The notes under the pieces: model-generated
Told to the model about the DNA's origin: nothing
The model's input: only the letters and a program-made list of their open reading frames with translations
The model's database searches: none
Shown here: in pieces, positions 6,930-59,638 of the stretch
How the letters are laid out: every line of letters begins with the position of its first letter
How positions within the stretch are numbered: the stretch's first letter is position 1
Made by a program: the position numbers and the translations under genes
Assembly (NCBI RefSeq): GCF_051903065.1
Contig: NZ_CP178438.1
DNA from: Escherichia coli
GTDB taxonomy: Bacteria > Pseudomonadota > Gammaproteobacteria > Enterobacterales > Enterobacteriaceae
Length of the DNA: 64,000 bases
Strand: one strand, 5' to 3'

Positions 6930-7250
<321 letters not shown>

Positions 7251-7683: not shown

Positions 7684-7772
7684 GCTAGATGAGGACTGTT
7701 TCATTTCTGCCCGGAACCACCAAGTCTTGGGCGGAAAAAATAAAAAAACCGACTGTCATGTCGGTTTTTTTA
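7684..7772 (+). ncRNA. Candidate trans-encoded antitoxin sRNA (about 90 nt)
   Basis: Runs from the promoter above to the hairpin plus T-run terminator at 7749-7771; its 5' end (7683-7698 TGCTAGATGAGGACTG) is the exact complement of the toxin transcript region at 7497-7512. Confidence 0.4.
7735..7771. terminator. Bidirectional Rho-independent terminator (A-run, CCGAC-TGTCAT-GTCGG hairpin, T-run)
   Basis: Would terminate selU on the minus strand and the candidate sRNA on the plus strand; a degenerate copy lies at 7267-7293. Confidence 0.6.
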
Positions 7773-7834
7773 TATCTGTATTCTGGTGCAACCATTCTGT
7801 TCTCACGACAATCGCCGTTTCAGAATACCGCCCA

Positions 7835-8944
<1,110 letters not shown>

Positions 8945-20736: not shown

Positions 20737-20904
20737 CTCTTGCCTTTAAAGCGGATGCTATTTATTTCGTATAAGTGCGCAGTGCTCATGCCGGATGCTG
20801 CATGAGCACTATATCCTTCCTGAAAATCGCGCAAATTCTATATATTGCAGAGATCATGTAGGCCTGATAAGCGAAGCGCATCAGGCAATGTTACAAAAAA
20901 AGCC

Positions 20905-20935
20905 ACGGTATAAACCGTGGCAAAATCCAACATAG
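20905..20935 (-). terminator. Rho-independent terminator downstream of allE
   Basis: On the minus strand GCCACGG-TTTATA-CCGTGGC followed by TTTTTTT. Confidence 0.6.
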
Positions 20936-21408
20936 CTAAAAATAATCAGGCGAGTGGTATGACTTAAATCTCTACGTCGCGGTTGCAATCTTTCGAGTAA
21001 ATATAGCTGAACGCTTCACCACGCCCTACGCCATAACCAGCCTGTAAAGAATAAGCGCCCATAAAGATGTAATCGCCTTTTTTCACCGGGATCCAGTTAT
21101 TGTCGAGGTTATAAACCCCCTGACCGGAAAGAATATAGGCACCGTGTTCCTGAACGTGTGTTTCGATATAACCATGGCTGGCACCTGGTGCAAAAGAGAG
21201 GATATGCATGTTCATATCAAAACCTAACTCTTTGGGCAGAAAATCCAGCAGGATCACATCATCCATACCTTCATAGTGAATGCGTTCCAGTTCGCTGGCA
21301 TTGCCAGAAACCAGCCACGGTGCATGGCCTTCTACCAGAACATAGCGGCGCTTGGTGATGCTGCCAACTTACTGATTTAGTGTATGATGGTGTTTTTGAG
21401 GTGCTCCA

Positions 21409-35197: not shown

Positions 35198-35232
35198 TTG
35201 CGCTATTGCCGGATGCGAGTTTTCGCATCCGG

Positions 35233-43930: not shown

Positions 43931-44007
43931 GCGCCCTTAGCTCAGTTGGATAGAGCAACGACCTTCTAAGTCGTGGGCCGCAGGTTCGAATCCTGCAGGG
44001 CGCGCCA
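43931..44007 (+). tRNA. argU: tRNA-Arg (anticodon UCU, reads AGA)
   Basis: GCGCCCTTAGCTCAGTTGGATAGAGCAACGACCTTCTAAGTCGTGGGCCGCAGGTTCGAATCCTGCAGGGCGCGCCA; cloverleaf with TCT anticodon and 3' CCA. Confidence 0.95.
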
Positions 44008-51233: not shown

Positions 51234-52676
51234 TTAAGCGGGTAATGTGATAACAAACCTTGTCCCCCGCGCATCTGACGTTACTGCAACCGTGCCTTTA
51301 TGTGCGACAACAATCGATTTCACTATCGCCAGCCCAATGCCGCTACCTTCGCCTTTTCGCTGGCGGGAAGGGTCAACGCGGTAGAAACGGTCAAACAATC
51401 GCGGTAAGTGCTCGGGCGCAATGGGAGTACCGGGGTTTTCGACGATAACTTGCACCTGGTGATCGACCGTCTGGCAGCGCACTACAATAGCCTCACTGGG
51501 TGGCGTATAACGCAGGGCATTAGAAAGCAGGTTGCTTAACGCCCGACGCAGCATCAGCGGATCGCCCGCAACCTGACATTTGTCGCCAACAAACCGCAAC
51601 TCCACGCCGCGATCTTCCGCTAACGCCTCGAAAAAATCGAACACTTTGCCGATTTCATCCGCCAGGTTGAGCATTTTCTTTTCGGGGATTAGCTGGTTGT
51701 TATCGGCCTGAGCGAGAAACAGCATATCGCTGACCATTTTCGCCATTCGCGTCAGCTCTTCGAGATTAGAGTAGAGCACATCTTCCAGCTCCTTCTGGCT
51801 GCGAGACTGGCTGAGGGCGATTTCCGTTTGCGTGATGAGATTGGTAATCGGCGTACGAATTTCGTGAGCGATATCCGCTGAGAAATTGGACTGGCGGGTA
51901 AAGACATCCTCAATACGCTCGATCATATGGTTGAACGACAGTACCAGCTGTTCCAGCTCAATCGGCACGGTCTGCGGGTCGAGGCGAACGTCGAGATCTT
52001 TCGAGGTAATATTCTGGATTTGACGGCTGACGCTGCGGATCGGCGCGTGACCTTTATGTACCGCCAACAGCACGATAAAGACGATCAGGATGCTGATTAC
52101 CGATGCGGTCATAATAAGTTTATTCATCAAATCATTTATGTAATGAAGATGAAAATCGATCGAAAGCGCGATGTAGAGCGTATAAATCGGTTTTCCGTCC
52201 ACCAACGGGCCAACCGGCAAGTTAATCATCCGCCAGTTGCTGTGTTCCATATGCCCGTGACCGTGGCCTGGCATCATCATCGTCGGGCCGGAAAGGAGAT
52301 ACACCTCGCCACCCTGAGCGTCTTTATCGGGTATGGCGTCACGCGTAAACTCGCGGATATCCGGCGCACCGGGGGAGTGATACACCGTTTTACCCAGGCT
52401 ATCTGCCAGGGAAATCAACACATTGGAATAACCACTGACGATATCTTCCAGCGTCATTAAGCGTCGGGCTTGCGTTTCGTCAGGATGATTTAGTACCCGT
52501 TCAAGGGTGGCGCTAATCTCTTTTAAATCATTAATATCCTGCTCGGCAAAATGAACTTTTACTGAGTGGATCATGATCCATGCAAAGGCGAAAAACGCCG
52601 CGATGGTGGCCAGGCTGATAAAAAAGGTCAGGCGGGTTGCCAGCGAAAACGGGCGCTGAAATGGCTTACTGACCAT
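51234..52676 (-). CDS. cusS: Copper/silver sensor histidine kinase
   Basis: Periplasmic sensor, HAMP, H-box [10 protein letters not shown] and ATPase domain; start at MVSKPF gives 480 aa. Confidence 0.9.
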
Positions 52677-53349
52677 CCGGCACCTCAAGCATGTAACCCA
52701 CGCCGCGCACGGTCTGAATTAGCTTCGGCTCAAAGTCGTTGTCGATTTTGCCGCGCAGCCGCTTCACCGCCACATCAATAGCATTGGTATCGCTGTCAAA
52801 ATTCATGTCCCATACCTGCGAGGCGATAAGCGAGCGGGGCAGCACTTCGCCCTGATGGCGGAGAAAAAACTCCAGCAGAGTAAACTCTTTACTGGTCAAA
52901 GTGATGCGCGTGCCGCTGCGGGTGACTTTGCGGCTGACGAGATCGACCATCAAATCGGCAACCTGAAACTGACTTTCGATAATCACCGCCGCCCCGCGCC
53001 GCAGTAATGTGCGCACCCGCGCCAGTAGTTCAGCAAAAGCGAATGGTTTCACCAGGTAGTCATCTGCCCCCAACTCCAGCCCCTTGACGCGATGTTCAAT
53101 GGTGCCAAGCGCGGTAAGCAACAGAATCGGCATCCCTTTATTGGCGGAGCGTAACATGCGCACGATATCCCAGCCGTTCACGTCCGGCAGCATAATATCG
53201 AGGATTATCAGATCATAATCACCGGTCATCGCCAGATGGTAGCCATTCAGCCCGTTGTCGGCCAAATCGACCACAAAACCGGCTTCGATTAACCCTTTGG
53301 TCAAGTATTCTCCGGTTTTCTTTTCATCTTCGACAATCAACAGTTTCAT
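52666..53349 (-). CDS. cusR: OmpR-family response regulator
   Basis: 227-aa ORF with receiver domain (MKLLIVEDE) and winged helix. Confidence 0.95.
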
Positions 53350-53414
53350 ATTTCCTCCGCATGTTGCCCGGGCAATTCTAGAGTAGCGGGATCAGATGGC
53401 AATCGCTTATTGGC

Positions 53415-53436
53415 AAAATGACAATTTTGTCATTTT
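53415..53436. promoter_or_regulatory. CusR box (AAAATGACAA-TT-TTGTCATTTT) in the cusR/cusC divergent promoter
   Basis: Perfect 10-2-10 inverted repeat between the divergent operons. Confidence 0.7.
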
Positions 53437-53505
53437 CCTGTCACCGGAAAATCAGAGCCTGGCGAGTAAAGTTGGCGGTATAAAATCACCAGAAATTATG
53501 AGCCT

Positions 53506-54888
53506 ATGTCTCCTTGTAAACTTCTGCCATTTTGTGTGGCCCTTGCGCTAACCGGTTGTTCACTGGCACCGGATTATCAGCGCCCGGCAATGCCCGTACC
53601 GCAGCAGTTCTCACTCAGCCAGAACGGCCTCGTTAACGCAGCAGATAACTATCAGAACGCGGGCTGGCGCACCTTTTTTGTTGATAATCAGGTGAAGACG
53701 CTGATTAGCGAGGCGCTGGTGAATAACCGGGATTTGCGCATGGCGACGCTGAAAGTGCAGGAGGCACGGGCGCAATATCGTCTGACTGGTGCCGACCGCT
53801 ACCCACAGCTCAATGGTGAGGGCAGCGGCAGCTGGAGCGGCAATCTTAAAGGCGATTCAGCCACGACGCGGGAGTTTTCTACTGGCCTTAACGCCAGCTT
53901 TGACCTCGATTTTTTCGGGCGCTTAAAGAACATGAGCGAAGCCGGGCGACAAAATTATTTAGCCACTGAGGAAGCTCAGCGCGCGGTGCATATTCTGCTG
54001 GTTTCTAATGTCGCGCAAAGCTATTTCAATCAGCAGCTGGCGTATGCGCAATTGCAAATAGCCGAAGAAACGCTGCGTAATTATCAGCAGTCATATGCGT
54101 TTGTCGAAAAACAACTGTTGACAGGTAGCAGTAATGTTCTGGCGCTGGAACAGGCTCGCGGGATGATTGAAAGTACCCGCAGCGACATCGCTAAACGTCA
54201 GGGGGAACTGGCGCAGGCGAATAATGCATTGCAACTGTTATTGGGAAGCTACGGCAAGCTGCCGCAAGCGCAGACAGCAAACGGCGGCAGTCTGCAAAGC
54301 GTTAAATTACCGGCGGGCTTGTCGTCGCAAATCTTATTGCAGCGCCCGGATATTATGGAAGCTGAACATGCGTTAATGGCGGCTAATGCCAATATTGGTG
54401 CTGCACGCGCGGCATTTTTCCCGTCTATCAGCCTGACCAGCGGAATATCAACCGCCAGCAGCGATCTGTCGTCATTATTTAACGCCAGCAGCGGGATGTG
54501 GAATTTTATACCCAAAATTGAGATCCCCATTTTTAATGCCGGACGCAACCAGGCCAATCTGGATATCGCCGAAATTCGCCAGCAGCAGTCGGTAGTGAAT
54601 TATGAACAGAAAATCCAGAACGCCTTTAAAGAAGTGGCAGATGCGCTGGCATTACGTCAAAGCCTGAACGATCAAATCAGCGCCCAGCAGCGTTATCTGG
54701 CGTCGCTGCAAATTACTTTGCAACGGGCGCGGGCATTATATCAGCACGGCGCGGTAAGTTATCTGGAAGTGCTGGATGCCGAGCGTTCTTTATTTGCAAC
54801 CCGACAAACCTTACTTGACCTGAATTATGCCCGTCAGGTCAACGAAATTTCTTTATATACCGCACTTGGTGGCGGTTGGCAGCAATAA
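53506..54888 (+). CDS. cusC: Outer-membrane efflux factor (lipoprotein)
   Basis: 460-aa ORF with lipobox LTGC. Confidence 0.9.
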   Translation: MSPCKLLPFCVALALTGCSLAPDYQRPAMPVPQQFSLSQNGLVNAADNYQNAGWRTFFVDNQVKTLISEALVNNRDLRMATLKVQEARAQYRLTGADRYPQLNGEGSGSWSGNLKGDSATTREFSTGLNASFDLDFFGRLKNMSEAGRQNYLATEEAQRAVHILLVSNVAQSYFNQQLAYAQLQIAEETLRNYQQSYAFVEKQLLTGSSNVLALEQARGMIESTRSDIAKRQGELAQANNALQLLLGSYGKLPQAQTANGGSLQSVKLPAGLSSQILLQRPDIMEAEHALMAANANIGAARAAFFPSISLTSGISTASSDLSSLFNASSGMWNFIPKIEIPIFNAGRNQANLDIAEIRQQQSVVNYEQKIQNAFKEVADALALRQSLNDQISAQQRYLASLQITLQRARALYQHGAVSYLEVLDAERSLFATRQTLLDLNYARQVNEISLYTALGGGWQQ

Positions 54889-54911
54889 TTTTTAACTCCA
54901 GGAGAGAATAA

Positions 54912-55244
54912 ATGAAAAAAGCACTGCAAGTCGCAATGTTCAGTCTGTTTACCGTTATTGGCTTTAATGCCCAGGCTAACGAACATCATCATGAAACCAT
55001 GAGCGAAGCACAACCACAGGTCATTAGTGCCACCGGCGTGGTAAAAGGTGTTGATCTGGAAAGCAAAAAAATCACCATCCATCACGATCCGATTGCTGCC
55101 GTGAACTGGCCGGAGATGACTATGCGCTTTACCATCACTCCGCAGACGAAAATGAGTGAAATTAAAACTGGCGACAAAGTGGCGTTTAATTTTGTCCAGC
55201 AGGGCAACCTTTCTTTATTACAGGATATTAAAGTCAGCCAGTAA
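54912..55244 (+). CDS. cusF: Periplasmic copper/silver chaperone
   Basis: 110-aa ORF with signal peptide. Confidence 0.9.
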   Translation: MKKALQVAMFSLFTVIGFNAQANEHHHETMSEAQPQVISATGVVKGVDLESKKITIHHDPIAAVNWPEMTMRFTITPQTKMSEIKTGDKVAFNFVQQGNLSLLQDIKVSQ

Positions 55245-55259
55245 CCCAGGTTTAATGAG

Positions 55260-56483
55260 ATGAAAAAAATCGCGCTTATTATCGGCAGCATGATCGCGGG
55301 CGGTATTATTTCTGCGGCAGGTTTTACCTGGTTTGACCGGGCTGAACCGCCCGCAGAAAAAACGTCGACCGCAGAACGTAAAATCTTATTCTGGTACGAC
55401 CCGATGTATCCCAATACGCGGTTCGATAAACCAGGTAAATCGCCGTTTATGGATATGGATCTGGTGCCGAAATATGCCGATGAAGAGAGTTCTGCGTCTG
55501 GTGTGCGCATTGACCCGACTCAGACGCAGAATCTGGGGGTGAAAACGGCTACCGTCACGCGCGGGCCGCTGACTTTTGCCCAGAGTTTCCCGGCGAATGT
55601 CAGTTACAACGAGTATCAGTATGCCATTGTGCAGGCTCGCGCTGCCGGGTTTATCGACAAGGTGTATCCGCTTACCGTGGGCGATAAAGTGCAAAAGGGC
55701 ACACCGCTTCTCGACCTGACCATTCCCGACTGGGTGGAAGCGCAGAGTGAGTATTTACTGCTGCGCGAAACCGGCGGTACGGCGACCCAGACTGAAGGCA
55801 TTCTTGAGCGGCTGCGACTGGCGGGAATGCCGGAGGCGGATATTCGCCGCCTGATCGCCACGCAAAAAATCCAGACTCGCTTTACGCTCAAAGCACCCAT
55901 TGATGGCGTGATCACCGCGTTTGATCTGCGCGCGGGAATGAATATCGCCAAAGATAACGTGGTAGCGAAAATTCAGGGTATGGACCCGGTGTGGGTCACT
56001 GCTGCGATCCCGGAGTCCATCGCCTGGCTGGTGAAAGATGCCTCGCAGTTTACGCTCACCGTTCCGGCGCGACCTGATAAAACACTCACCATCCGCAAAT
56101 GGACGCTACTACCTGGCGTGGATGCCGCGACCCGCACGCTGCAGCTGCGTCTGGAAGTCGACAACGCCAACGAGGCGCTAAAACCGGGAATGAACGCCTG
56201 GTTGCAACTCAATACCGCCAGCGAACCGATGCTGCTCATTCCGTCACAAGCGCTGATTGATACCGGCAGCGAACAGCGGGTGATTACCGTTGATGCCGAC
56301 GGGCGCTTTGTACCAAAACGCGTTGCCGTTTTCCAGGCATCGCAAGGTGTCACCGCATTACGCTCTGGTCTGGCGGAAGGTGAAAAGGTGGTTTCCAGCG
56401 GCCTGTTCCTGATTGATTCCGAAGCCAATATTTCTGGCGCACTGGAGCGGATGCGCTCTGAAAGTGCTACCCATGCGCATTGA
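55260..56483 (+). CDS. cusB: Membrane fusion protein of the Cus efflux system
   Basis: 407-aa ORF. Confidence 0.9.
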   Translation: MKKIALIIGSMIAGGIISAAGFTWFDRAEPPAEKTSTAERKILFWYDPMYPNTRFDKPGKSPFMDMDLVPKYADEESSASGVRIDPTQTQNLGVKTATVTRGPLTFAQSFPANVSYNEYQYAIVQARAAGFIDKVYPLTVGDKVQKGTPLLDLTIPDWVEAQSEYLLLRETGGTATQTEGILERLRLAGMPEADIRRLIATQKIQTRFTLKAPIDGVITAFDLRAGMNIAKDNVVAKIQGMDPVWVTAAIPESIAWLVKDASQFTLTVPARPDKTLTIRKWTLLPGVDAATRTLQLRLEVDNANEALKPGMNAWLQLNTASEPMLLIPSQALIDTGSEQRVITVDADGRFVPKRVAVFQASQGVTALRSGLAEGEKVVSSGLFLIDSEANISGALERMRSESATHAH

Positions 56484-56494
56484 GGGAATAACCA

Positions 56495-59400
56495 ATGATT
56501 GAATGGATTATTCGTCGCTCGGTGGCGAACCGTTTTCTGGTGCTGATGGGCGCGTTATTTCTGAGTATCTGGGGCACCTGGACCATCATTAACACGCCAG
56601 TGGATGCGTTGCCGGATCTCTCCGATGTGCAGGTGATTATTAAAACCAGCTATCCCGGTCAGGCACCGCAAATCGTTGAAAATCAGGTGACTTATCCGCT
56701 AACTACCACCATGTTGTCGGTGCCTGGCGCGAAGACTGTGCGTGGTTTCTCGCAGTTTGGCGACTCTTATGTGTATGTCATTTTCGAAGATGGCACCGAT
56801 CCGTACTGGGCGCGCTCGCGGGTGCTGGAGTACCTCAACCAGGTACAGGGTAAGCTGCCTGCGGGAGTCAGCGCCGAGCTGGGACCAGATGCCACGGGTG
56901 TTGGCTGGATCTATGAATATGCACTGGTGGATCGCAGCGGTAAGCACGATCTGGCCGATTTACGCTCATTGCAGGACTGGTTTCTCAAATATGAGCTAAA
57001 AACCATCCCTGACGTTGCGGAAGTGGCGTCGGTGGGCGGCGTGGTGAAAGAGTATCAGGTGGTTATCGATCCCCAGCGCCTGGCGCAATATGGTATCAGT
57101 CTCGCCGAAGTAAAAAGCGCGCTGGATGCTTCAAACCAGGAAGCGGGCGGTTCGTCGATTGAACTGGCGGAAGCGGAATATATGGTGCGCGCCAGCGGCT
57201 ATCTGCAAACGCTCGACGACTTTAATCACATCGTTTTAAAAGCCAGTGAAAATGGCGTGCCCGTTTATCTGCGCGATGTTGCGAAGGTCCAGATTGGCCC
57301 GGAGATGCGCCGGGGCATTGCCGAACTAAACGGCGAAGGCGAAGTGGCGGGCGGGGTGGTGATCCTGCGCTCCGGCAAAAACGCCCGAGAAGTGATCGCC
57401 GCCGTGAAGGACAAACTGGAAACGCTGAAAAGTAGTCTGCCGGAAGGCGTGGAGATAGTTACAACATACGATCGCAGCCAGCTCATTGACCGCGCCATCG
57501 ACAACCTCAGCGGCAAGTTGCTGGAAGAGTTTATTGTGGTGGCGGTAGTCTGTGCGCTGTTTCTCTGGCATGTGCGCTCGGCGCTGGTGGCGATTATTTC
57601 GTTGCCGCTGGGGTTGTGTATTGCTTTTATTGTCATGCACTTCCAGGGGCTGAATGCCAATATTATGTCGCTGGGTGGCATTGCGATTGCCGTCGGGGCG
57701 ATGGTCGATGCCGCTATCGTCATGATCGAGAATGCACATAAACGGCTGGAAGAGTGGCAGCACCAGCATCCTGACGCCACGCTGGATAATAAAACGCGCT
57801 GGCAGGTGATCACCGATGCATCTGTTGAAGTGGGGCCGGCACTGTTTATCAGTCTGCTGATTATCACGTTGTCATTTATCCCGATCTTCACCCTGGAAGG
57901 GCAGGAAGGGCGTCTGTTTGGCCCGCTGGCGTTCACTAAAACCTATGCGATGGCGGGTGCGGCGCTGCTGGCGATCGTAGTGATCCCTATCCTGATGGGT
58001 TACTGGATCCGTGGCAAAATTCCGCCAGAAAGCAGTAACCCGCTCAATCGCTTTTTGATTCGTGTTTATCATCCGCTGTTGCTGAAAGTACTGCACTGGC
58101 CGAAAACCACGCTGCTGGTGGCGGCGCTTTCGGTGCTGACGGTTCTCTGGCCGCTCAATAAAGTTGGCGGGGAATTTTTACCACAGATCAATGAAGGCGA
58201 CTTGTTGTATATGCCATCGACGTTGCCGGGGATTTCCGCAGCGGAGGCGGCGAGTATGCTGCAAAAAACCGACAAGCTGATTATGAGCGTACCTGAAGTG
58301 GCGCGGGTATTTGGCAAAACCGGAAAAGCGGAAACCGCCACCGACTCTGCTCCGCTGGAGATGGTGGAAACGACCATCCAGCTTAAGCCACAGGATCAGT
58401 GGCGGCCAGGCATGACGATGGACAAAATCATTGAGGAACTGGATAACACCGTGCGTCTGCCGGGGCTGGCGAATCTGTGGGTGCCGCCAATTCGTAACCG
58501 TATCGATATGCTCTCAACCGGCATTAAAAGCCCCATCGGCATTAAAGTTTCCGGCACTGTGCTGGCGGATATCGACGCGATGGCGGAGCAAATTGAAGAA
58601 GTGGCGCGAACGGTGCCAGGCGTAGCTTCTGCGCTTGCCGAGCGTCTGGAAGGTGGGCGCTATATCAACGTTGAGATTAACCGTGAAAAAGCCGCGCGTT
58701 ACGGTATGACGGTGGCGGATGTGCAGTTGTTTGTGACTTCTGCGGTGGGCGGGGCGATGGTTGGCGAAACGGTGGAAGGGATTGCCCGTTATCCAATTAA
58801 TCTGCGTTATCCGCAAAGCTGGCGCGATAGTCCGCAGGCACTGCGCCAGTTGCCGATCCTGACGCCGATGAAGCAGCAAATCACCCTGGCAGACGTGGCC
58901 GACGTTAAAGTCTCTACCGGACCGTCGATGCTGAAAACCGAGAATGCGCGCCCGACGAGCTGGATTTATATCGATGCCCGCGATCGTGACATGGTGTCGG
59001 TGGTTCACGATTTGCAAAAAGCGATAGCTGAAAAAGTGCAGTTAAAACCGGGCACCAGCGTGGCATTCTCCGGGCAGTTCGAGCTACTGGAGCGCGCCAA
59101 CCATAAGCTGAAACTCATGGTGCCGATGACGTTGATGATTATCTTCGTGCTGTTGTATCTGGCGTTCCGTCGGGTGGGCGAAGCGTTGCTGATTATCAGC
59201 AGCGTACCGTTTGCGCTGGTGGGCGGCATCTGGTTGCTGTGGTGGATGGGCTTTCATCTTTCCGTGGCGACGGGTACCGGGTTTATCGCTCTCGCCGGAG
59301 TCGCTGCCGAATTTGGCGTGGTGATGCTGATGTATTTACGTCACGCCATAGAGGCAGATCCGTCGCTAGATAATCCACAAACATTCAGTGAGCAGAAGCT

Positions 59401-59638
59401 GGATGAGGCGTTGTATCACGGTGCGGTACTGCGCGTGCGCCCGAAAGCGATGACGGTGGCGGTGATTATCGCCGGTCTGTTGCCGATTCTGTGGGGAACA
59501 GGAGCAGGGTCAGAGGTGATGAGCCGGATTGCCGCGCCGATGATTGGCGGCATGATCACCGCGCCTTTGCTGTCGCTGTTTATTATCCCGGCGGCGTATA
59601 AGCTGATGTGGCTGCACCGACATCGGGTACGGAAATAA
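56495..59638 (+). CDS. cusA: RND heavy-metal efflux pump
   Basis: 1047-aa 12-TM RND ORF. Confidence 0.95.

Follow-up and report, generated by a model that had tools for sequence, protein, structure and literature searches.

The spacer between the divergently transcribed cusR and cusC genes raises two questions: which regulator reads the perfect palindrome at its center, and does this symmetric element serve the promoters on its two sides alike? We addressed both in a window of 64 kb, which is the whole stretch of Escherichia coli DNA that was analyzed. The genes that frame the spacer are as follows:

51234–52676, minus strand: cusS, Cu(I)/Ag(I) sensor kinase (NF007345, 981 bits; RefSeq start)
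52666–53349, minus strand: cusR, response regulator of the OmpR/PhoB family (NF007346, 505 bits versus a cut-off of 420)
53506–59638, plus strand: cusCFBA operon (profile matches and RefSeq annotation of the closest strain)
53506–54888, plus strand: cusC
54912–55244, plus strand: cusF
55260–56483, plus strand: cusB
56495–59638, plus strand: cusA

All six genes, cusR, cusS, cusC, cusF, cusB, and cusA, score far above the NCBIfam cut-offs. With cusR on the minus strand, cusC on the plus strand, and the RefSeq annotation in agreement, the divergent cusRS/cusCFBA promoter described by the first-pass annotation is confirmed. The spacer measures 156 bp (53350–53505) and has its center at 53427.5; the center of the palindrome falls at 53425.5, only 2 bp away, which bears out the earlier description of the element as centered between the two operons. 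At the far end of cusR, the RefSeq start of cusS (52676) places the first 11 nt of cusS within cusR, an overlap also seen in K-12 and suggestive of coupled translation of the two genes; the longest cusS open reading frame begins at a TTG at position 52688.

Elsewhere in the window, a tRNA (43931–44004; tRNA-Arg in the closest strain) is followed directly by envY, ybcH, and nfrAB in the annotation of that strain, with no prophage in between; K-12 carries the DLP12 prophage at this tRNA. Rfam matches at gathering level (6959–7183, 7685–7773, and 20823–20957) belong to repeat-derived small RNA families, namely naRNA4 (two tandem copies), ES036 (two copies), AgrB, and STnc480, and are unrelated to the cus locus.

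The 401 bp around the palindrome are 100% identical to strain 23CRST027 and are found, at ≥80% query coverage and with annotated cusR/cusC, in 5332 of 5426 complete E. coli genomes. The whole spacer is 95–100% identical across E. coli genomes, so conservation within the species is uninformative. Relative to K-12 MG1655, the spacer of the window carries two SNPs, both outside the palindrome: position 53437 is a C (T in K-12), and position 53479 is a T (C in K-12).

The palindrome itself reads AAAATGACAATTTTGTCATTTT in the window sequence and consists of the following parts:

53415–53436, no strand assigned: CusR box (copper box), a perfect inverted repeat that matches the published AAAATGACAAnnTTGTCATTTT
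53415–53424: left arm, AAAATGACAA
53425–53426: spacer, TT
53427–53436: right arm, TTGTCATTTT

The left arm is the exact reverse complement of the right arm, and the symmetry ends at 10 bp; the perfect 10-2-10 architecture reported at first reading is therefore correct to the base. The 22-mer occurs once in the 64-kb window, for which shuffled sequences predict 0.01 occurrences at ≤3 mismatches. Perfect inverted repeats with arms of at least 10 bp and a spacer of up to 4 nt are found twice in the 64 kb, against ~0.3 expected by a simple count (64000 × 5 / 4^10), and the cus palindrome is not a chance feature. When the core of the CusR box was scanned against the 64-kb window at ≤2 mismatches, three matches were obtained versus 2.5 expected, and the only perfect one was at 53415–53436. 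A search of the window for further boxes of CusR or HprR type gave chance-level matches only, besides this site, and no other chromosomal CusR sites are reported in the literature (PMC11195947; bioRxiv 10.1101/2020.08.17.251918). The second perfect inverted repeat in the window (35209–35232, CCGGATGCGA-GTTT-TCGCATCCGG) is G+C-rich and, to judge from collinearity with the closest strain, lies where the convergent genes cysS and ybcI meet; it is probably a bidirectional terminator.

A perfect inverted repeat could also be a hairpin in DNA or RNA, such as a terminator or cruciform, or a fortuitous repeat, with no protein-binding role in either case. Folded as single-stranded DNA, the 42 nt around the palindrome reach −7.3 kcal/mol with a z-score of −3.8, but this energy merely reflects the palindrome, since any perfect palindrome would fold in the same way. 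The stem is A+T-rich rather than G+C-rich with a T-run, a terminator scan of positions 53300–53560 found nothing, and an Rfam scan gave no match in the cusR–cusC spacer. The element also lies upstream of both predicted promoters and is thus probably not transcribed. On these grounds, namely the A+T-rich stem, the lack of terminator and Rfam matches, and the upstream position, a terminator or hairpin role was excluded. A chance origin conflicts with the 0.01 occurrences expected for the exact 22-mer and with a core that is conserved in paralogous and distant loci despite diverged flanks. Conservation and published binding data refute the hairpin and chance explanation for practical purposes, and we consider it vanishingly improbable.

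The sequence at 53415–53436 agrees at 22/22 positions with the E. coli CusR box AAAATGACAAnnTTGTCATTTT, placed between the divergent cusRS and cusC(F)BA operons, as quoted in PMC11195947 (citing Munson 2000). This letter-for-letter agreement with the quoted site upholds the name given to the element in the first-pass annotation. The K-12 copper box (Munson et al. 2000; Yamamoto & Ishihama 2005, as quoted in PMC11195947 and PMC10920338) has the identical 22 bp and the same position in a 156-bp spacer, with the same gene order and the same regulator; only the flanking SNPs at 53437 and 53479 differ. The regulator of the window and that of K-12 are identical at 226 of 227 residues (99.6%), with a single change, T21I, in the receiver domain and an unchanged DNA-binding domain. 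In K-12, unphosphorylated CusR gives a single strong peak in gSELEX, located in the cusR–cusC spacer (PMC8249747); ChIP-chip at 2 mM copper likewise has its only CusR peak there (bioRxiv 10.1101/2020.08.17.251918), and Reg-Seq found copper-dependent expression from the cusC promoter (PMC12132413). The accepted model, as stated in PMC10920338 with reference to Franke 2003 and Yamamoto & Ishihama 2005, is that phosphorylated CusR on the box activates both operons. Unphosphorylated CusR has been described as repressing cusCFBA in the absence of inducer (PMC8249747), so the box may act in both directions, as a site of activation and of repression.

We found no evidence contradicting the assignment, and we are highly confident that the palindrome serves as operator for the CusS/CusR copper/silver two-component system of E. 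coli; the cus box is an already known feature. Regulators of the OmpR/PhoB family usually bind direct rather than inverted repeats, and the reading of an inverted repeat by such a protein is a question for the whole CopR/CusR/PcoR group, not for the cus locus alone. A PDB sequence search returned no CusR–DNA complex, and the nearest entry was the DNA-binding domain of PcoR (2jzy). In the mechanism we favor, periplasmic Cu(I) or Ag(I) would activate CusS, and phosphorylated CusR would bind the two TGACAA/TTGTCA half-sites. The bound regulator would then activate the two flanking divergent sigma-70 promoters, with cusCFBA on the right and cusRS on the left, the latter amounting to positive autoregulation. 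The roles first attributed to the site, CusR autoregulation and activation of cusC, are thus supported by the K-12 literature (PMC10920338), but the attribution was incomplete: HprR and PhoB also target the site, and on the cusC side, conserved sequence continues past the 22 bp.

This additional sequence consists of two elements in phase with the right arm:

53438–53444, plus strand: third half-site, CTGTCAC, a direct repeat of the right-arm core located 11 bp downstream
53450–53455, plus strand: conserved block AAnCA(G), columns 47–52 of the ungapped alignment

The third half-site is present on the cusC side only. Within the second element, an invariant CA (53453–53454) lies exactly 11 bp past the CA of the third half-site. 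One possible reading of the AAnCA(G) block is a fourth half-site, degenerate but in phase, at the −35 region; it may also be of another nature. The conservation was assessed in an ungapped alignment of eleven promoters, ten of which are distinct once K-12, nearly identical to the window, is set aside. The set comprised cusC from the window and from K-12, two plasmid silC promoters, silE, pcoE, and the cus-like loci of Lelliottia, Enterobacter, Denitrificimonas, Providencia, and Collimonas. TGACAA, TGTCAT, the in-phase GTCA, and then CA are invariant in 10/10 distinct promoters, each of which also has a TAnnnT hexamer exactly 22 nt past the third half-site (TATAAT in silE and pcoE). The palindrome core is kept in silR/silC, silE, pcoE, and the cus-like loci of all five genera, with the rest of the spacer diverged. 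The result is a fixed layout, found on the efflux-gene side only, in which the palindrome is followed by 4 nt, GTCA, the in-phase CA, and a TAnnnT −10 hexamer. The pcoA promoter does not conform cleanly to these fixed distances and was omitted from the alignment: the 22-nt interval before TAGATT, its candidate −10 hexamer, is counted from the right arm and not from a third half-site.

The plasmid copper boxes of the sil and pco systems (silR–silC spacer, silE, and pcoE) have the core TGACAA-NN-(T/A)TGTCAT in common with the cus box. Further common features are a GTCA in phase 11 bp downstream, the conserved aaaCAg block, and the −10 hexamer at 22 nt past the third half-site. They differ from the cus box in the outer A/T positions and in the 2-nt spacer, and the palindromes are imperfect in silE (ATGTCAT) and pcoE (GTGACAA...ATGTCATC). 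Their regulators are the paralogues SilR and PcoR, and pcoE is additionally under the control of chromosomal CusR (PMC11195947).

A wider survey was obtained by scanning species-representative genomes with AATGACAANNTTGTCATT, which matched at least 120 loci, six of them cus-like among the matches listed. All six cus-like loci among these matches have an in-phase GTCAC on the cusC side; among the unrelated 18-mer occurrences listed, an in-phase GTCA on either side was seen in 1/116. The remaining matches listed are mostly a Collinsella-specific palindrome, coding-looking sites, and chance matches. The one non-cus 18-mer with an in-phase GTCA among the matches listed comes from Moritella sp. JT01 (about position 8745), where the sequence reads AATGACAAAATTGTCATT-TTCT-AGTCAGC. 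No homologue of CusR turned up within 3 kb of it, and the site may be a diverged operator of copper type. In Collinsella, the same 18-mer is conserved in many genomes as AATGACAACGTTGTCATT, in eight loci and about 40 further ones among the matches listed; after it comes a second, imperfect copy, AATGACAACGTAAGACATT, and a hairpin-like CCTTCCTGCTTAAGGAAGG adjoins it. No cus genes lie near the Collinsella loci, and AATGACAACGTTGTCATT is presumably the operator of an unrelated regulator.

The position of these elements relative to the two transcription units was examined through the predicted promoters:

53397–53402, minus strand: predicted cusR −35, TTGCCA (promoter scan, 10/12 matches, 16-nt spacer)
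53375–53380, minus strand: predicted cusR −10, TAGAAT (promoter scan)
53467–53472, plus strand: predicted cusC −10, TAAAGT, at a conserved distance from the third half-site

On the cusR side, ATTCTA, the plus-strand reading of the −10 hexamer, is invariant in cus and sil spacers, and the sil loci have TTGATA at the alignment position of the −35 hexamer. Judged from the conserved −10 hexamers, cusR transcription would start near 53368, with the center of the box near −57.5, and cusC transcription would start near 53479, with the box near −53.5. The cusC value agrees with what we take to be the database entry. At cusR, the box would occupy a class-I-like upstream position. At cusC no −35-like hexamer is present, in keeping with a promoter that depends on an activator. 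Owing to the T at 53479, the window also contains another −10-like hexamer, TATAAA (53479–53484; CATAAA in K-12), which is not conserved in sil. Given its absence from K-12 and from sil, TATAAA is less likely than TAAAGT to be the cusC −10 element; if it were used, transcription would start near 53491 and the box would lie near −65. E. coli O19:H7 strain 730V1 carries a copy of IS903B in the cusR–cusC spacer at the equivalent of window position ~53458, between the box with its third half-site and the predicted cusC −10 hexamer, and its cusC is split by ISKpn26. The Cus pump of this strain is presumably inactivated and uncoupled from CusR.

The layout on the cusC side has a precedent in AgrR, a CusR-like regulator from Cupriavidus metallidurans, whose inverted repeat ATKACANNNNTGTMAT is flanked by in-phase direct repeats (PMC7380067). 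Activation by AgrR dropped when mutations were placed in either the inverted repeat or the direct repeat nearer the promoter (PMC7380067). The cusC side has the same inverted-plus-direct arrangement, with a different half-site sequence in a different organism, and a palindrome with an in-phase direct half-site on the promoter-proximal side is present in 10/10 distinct promoters of our alignment. The contribution of the direct repeat has been demonstrated experimentally for AgrR; we found no such test for E. coli CusR.

The third half-site also coincides with a published PhoB target in K-12:

53428–53445, plus strand: Pho-box-like direct repeat, TGTCATTTTCCTGTCACC, the published K-12 PhoB ChIP-seq motif site

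In K-12, the PhoB ChIP-seq site at cusR/cusC reads TGTCATTTTTCTGTCACC (PMC10294691 Table 1), from which the window differs by one spacer SNP, at 53437. PhoB at cusR/cusC is also backed by ChIP-chip, EMSA, and reporter data (PMC3465305), and cusC expression falls from 208 in the wild type to 50 in a phoB deletion (PMC10294691). For K-12, cusC is therefore a published gene of the pho regulon, controlled through PhoB. The target comprises two direct repeats with an 11-bp period, TTGTCAT (53427–53433) and CTGTCAC (53438–53444), separated by TTTC. Like a PhoB pho box, which has two 7-bp direct repeats with an 11-bp period, the cus site has both repeat cores; unlike it, the cus site has a first repeat that also serves as one arm of the CusR palindrome. 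A scan with the textbook pho box CTGTCATAWAWCTGTCAY gave no match at ≤3 mismatches, and the cus site departs from it at four positions, namely position 1 and three spacer positions.

The distance to the promoter differs as well. A canonical pho box lies 10–11 bp upstream of the −10 hexamer and replaces the −35 element. The direct-repeat pair at cusC is 21–22 bp from the conserved TAAAGT, one helical turn further from the −10 hexamer, and only the third half-site together with the degenerate AAATCA block would fit the canonical distance. A standard pho box was rejected on the four mismatches and the −10 distance, although PhoB binds the site according to the K-12 literature. The SNPs at 53479 and 53437 could alter basal or PhoB-dependent cusC expression in the lineage of the window.

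HprR, the second regulator to share the site, recognizes the same sequence as CusR with a different affinity (PMC8249747; PMC9302797). In K-12 gSELEX, HprR gives a single high-level peak, which lies in the cusR–cusC spacer and not at the HprR promoter itself (PMC8249747). The box between hprR and hiuH, CATTACAAAATTGTAATG, is the same kind of palindrome with a 2-nt spacer, again lies between a regulator gene and its divergent target, and is bound by both HprR and CusR (PMC9302797). It too has an in-phase third half-site on the target-gene side (TTGTAAT-GCTG-CTGTAAG), and its half-site is TGTAAT versus TGTCAT at cus. Scored against ATTACANNNNTGTAAT, the cus site shares 14/16 core positions. That the cus element is an operator common to CusR, HprR, and PhoB is already documented.

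These shared contacts raise the alternative that the element is mainly an operator of HprR, responding to peroxide and HOCl, or of PhoB, responding to phosphate starvation, with CusR in a secondary role. The single HprR peak in the spacer would fit such a view, as would the PhoB peaks, EMSA, and four-fold drop in cusC RNA in the phoB deletion, all of which map to TGTCATTTTTCTGTCACC, overlapping the right arm, where this arm and the third half-site make up a direct-repeat pair with a period of 11 bp. For PhoB, however, the textbook pho box is missed by four mismatches and the repeat pair is not at the canonical distance from the −10 hexamer. For either protein, the alternative is at odds with the cognate regulator gene, which adjoins the box and is co-inherited with it in every cus/sil locus examined. 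Copper induction of msrP is lost in a cusRS deletion but kept in an hprRS deletion (PMC9302797), and the cusC promoter shows no copper induction without CusRS (PMC8966772). With cusR next to the box in every locus examined and CusRS required for induction by copper, it is very unlikely that HprR or PhoB is the primary regulator. Induction of cusC by copper through CusR, rather than through HprR or PhoB, has largely been reported already.

With CusR retained as the principal regulator, the second question, whether the box serves both sides alike, can be considered. At cusC, the in-phase half-sites at 53438–53444 and perhaps 53450–53455 could carry regulator protomers from the palindrome to the −35 region, and such an array of half-sites would bias the symmetric box towards cusC. 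We tentatively propose that the cusC operator is an asymmetric array, formed by the palindrome plus one or two in-phase direct half-sites reaching to −35 and possibly occupied by CusR and PhoB, although we hold this to be a possibility rather than the expected outcome. The third half-site is real, and it is at least partly explained by the published PhoB and AgrR results.

The box is the control point of the main periplasmic copper/silver efflux pump of E. coli, and acquired silver resistance arises from mutations in the Cus circuit. Confirmation of the site adds nothing new but anchors the annotation of the window, and the only forward-looking point of the analysis is the asymmetric array on the cusC side. 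If this array is real, a symmetric box would drive two divergent promoters unequally, and CusR, HprR, and PhoB would share one promoter. Organisms ranging from E. coli to Collimonas share the half-site layout, as do the plasmid sil and pco promoters, and such a conserved array could explain the convergence of copper, oxidant, and phosphate signals on a single promoter.
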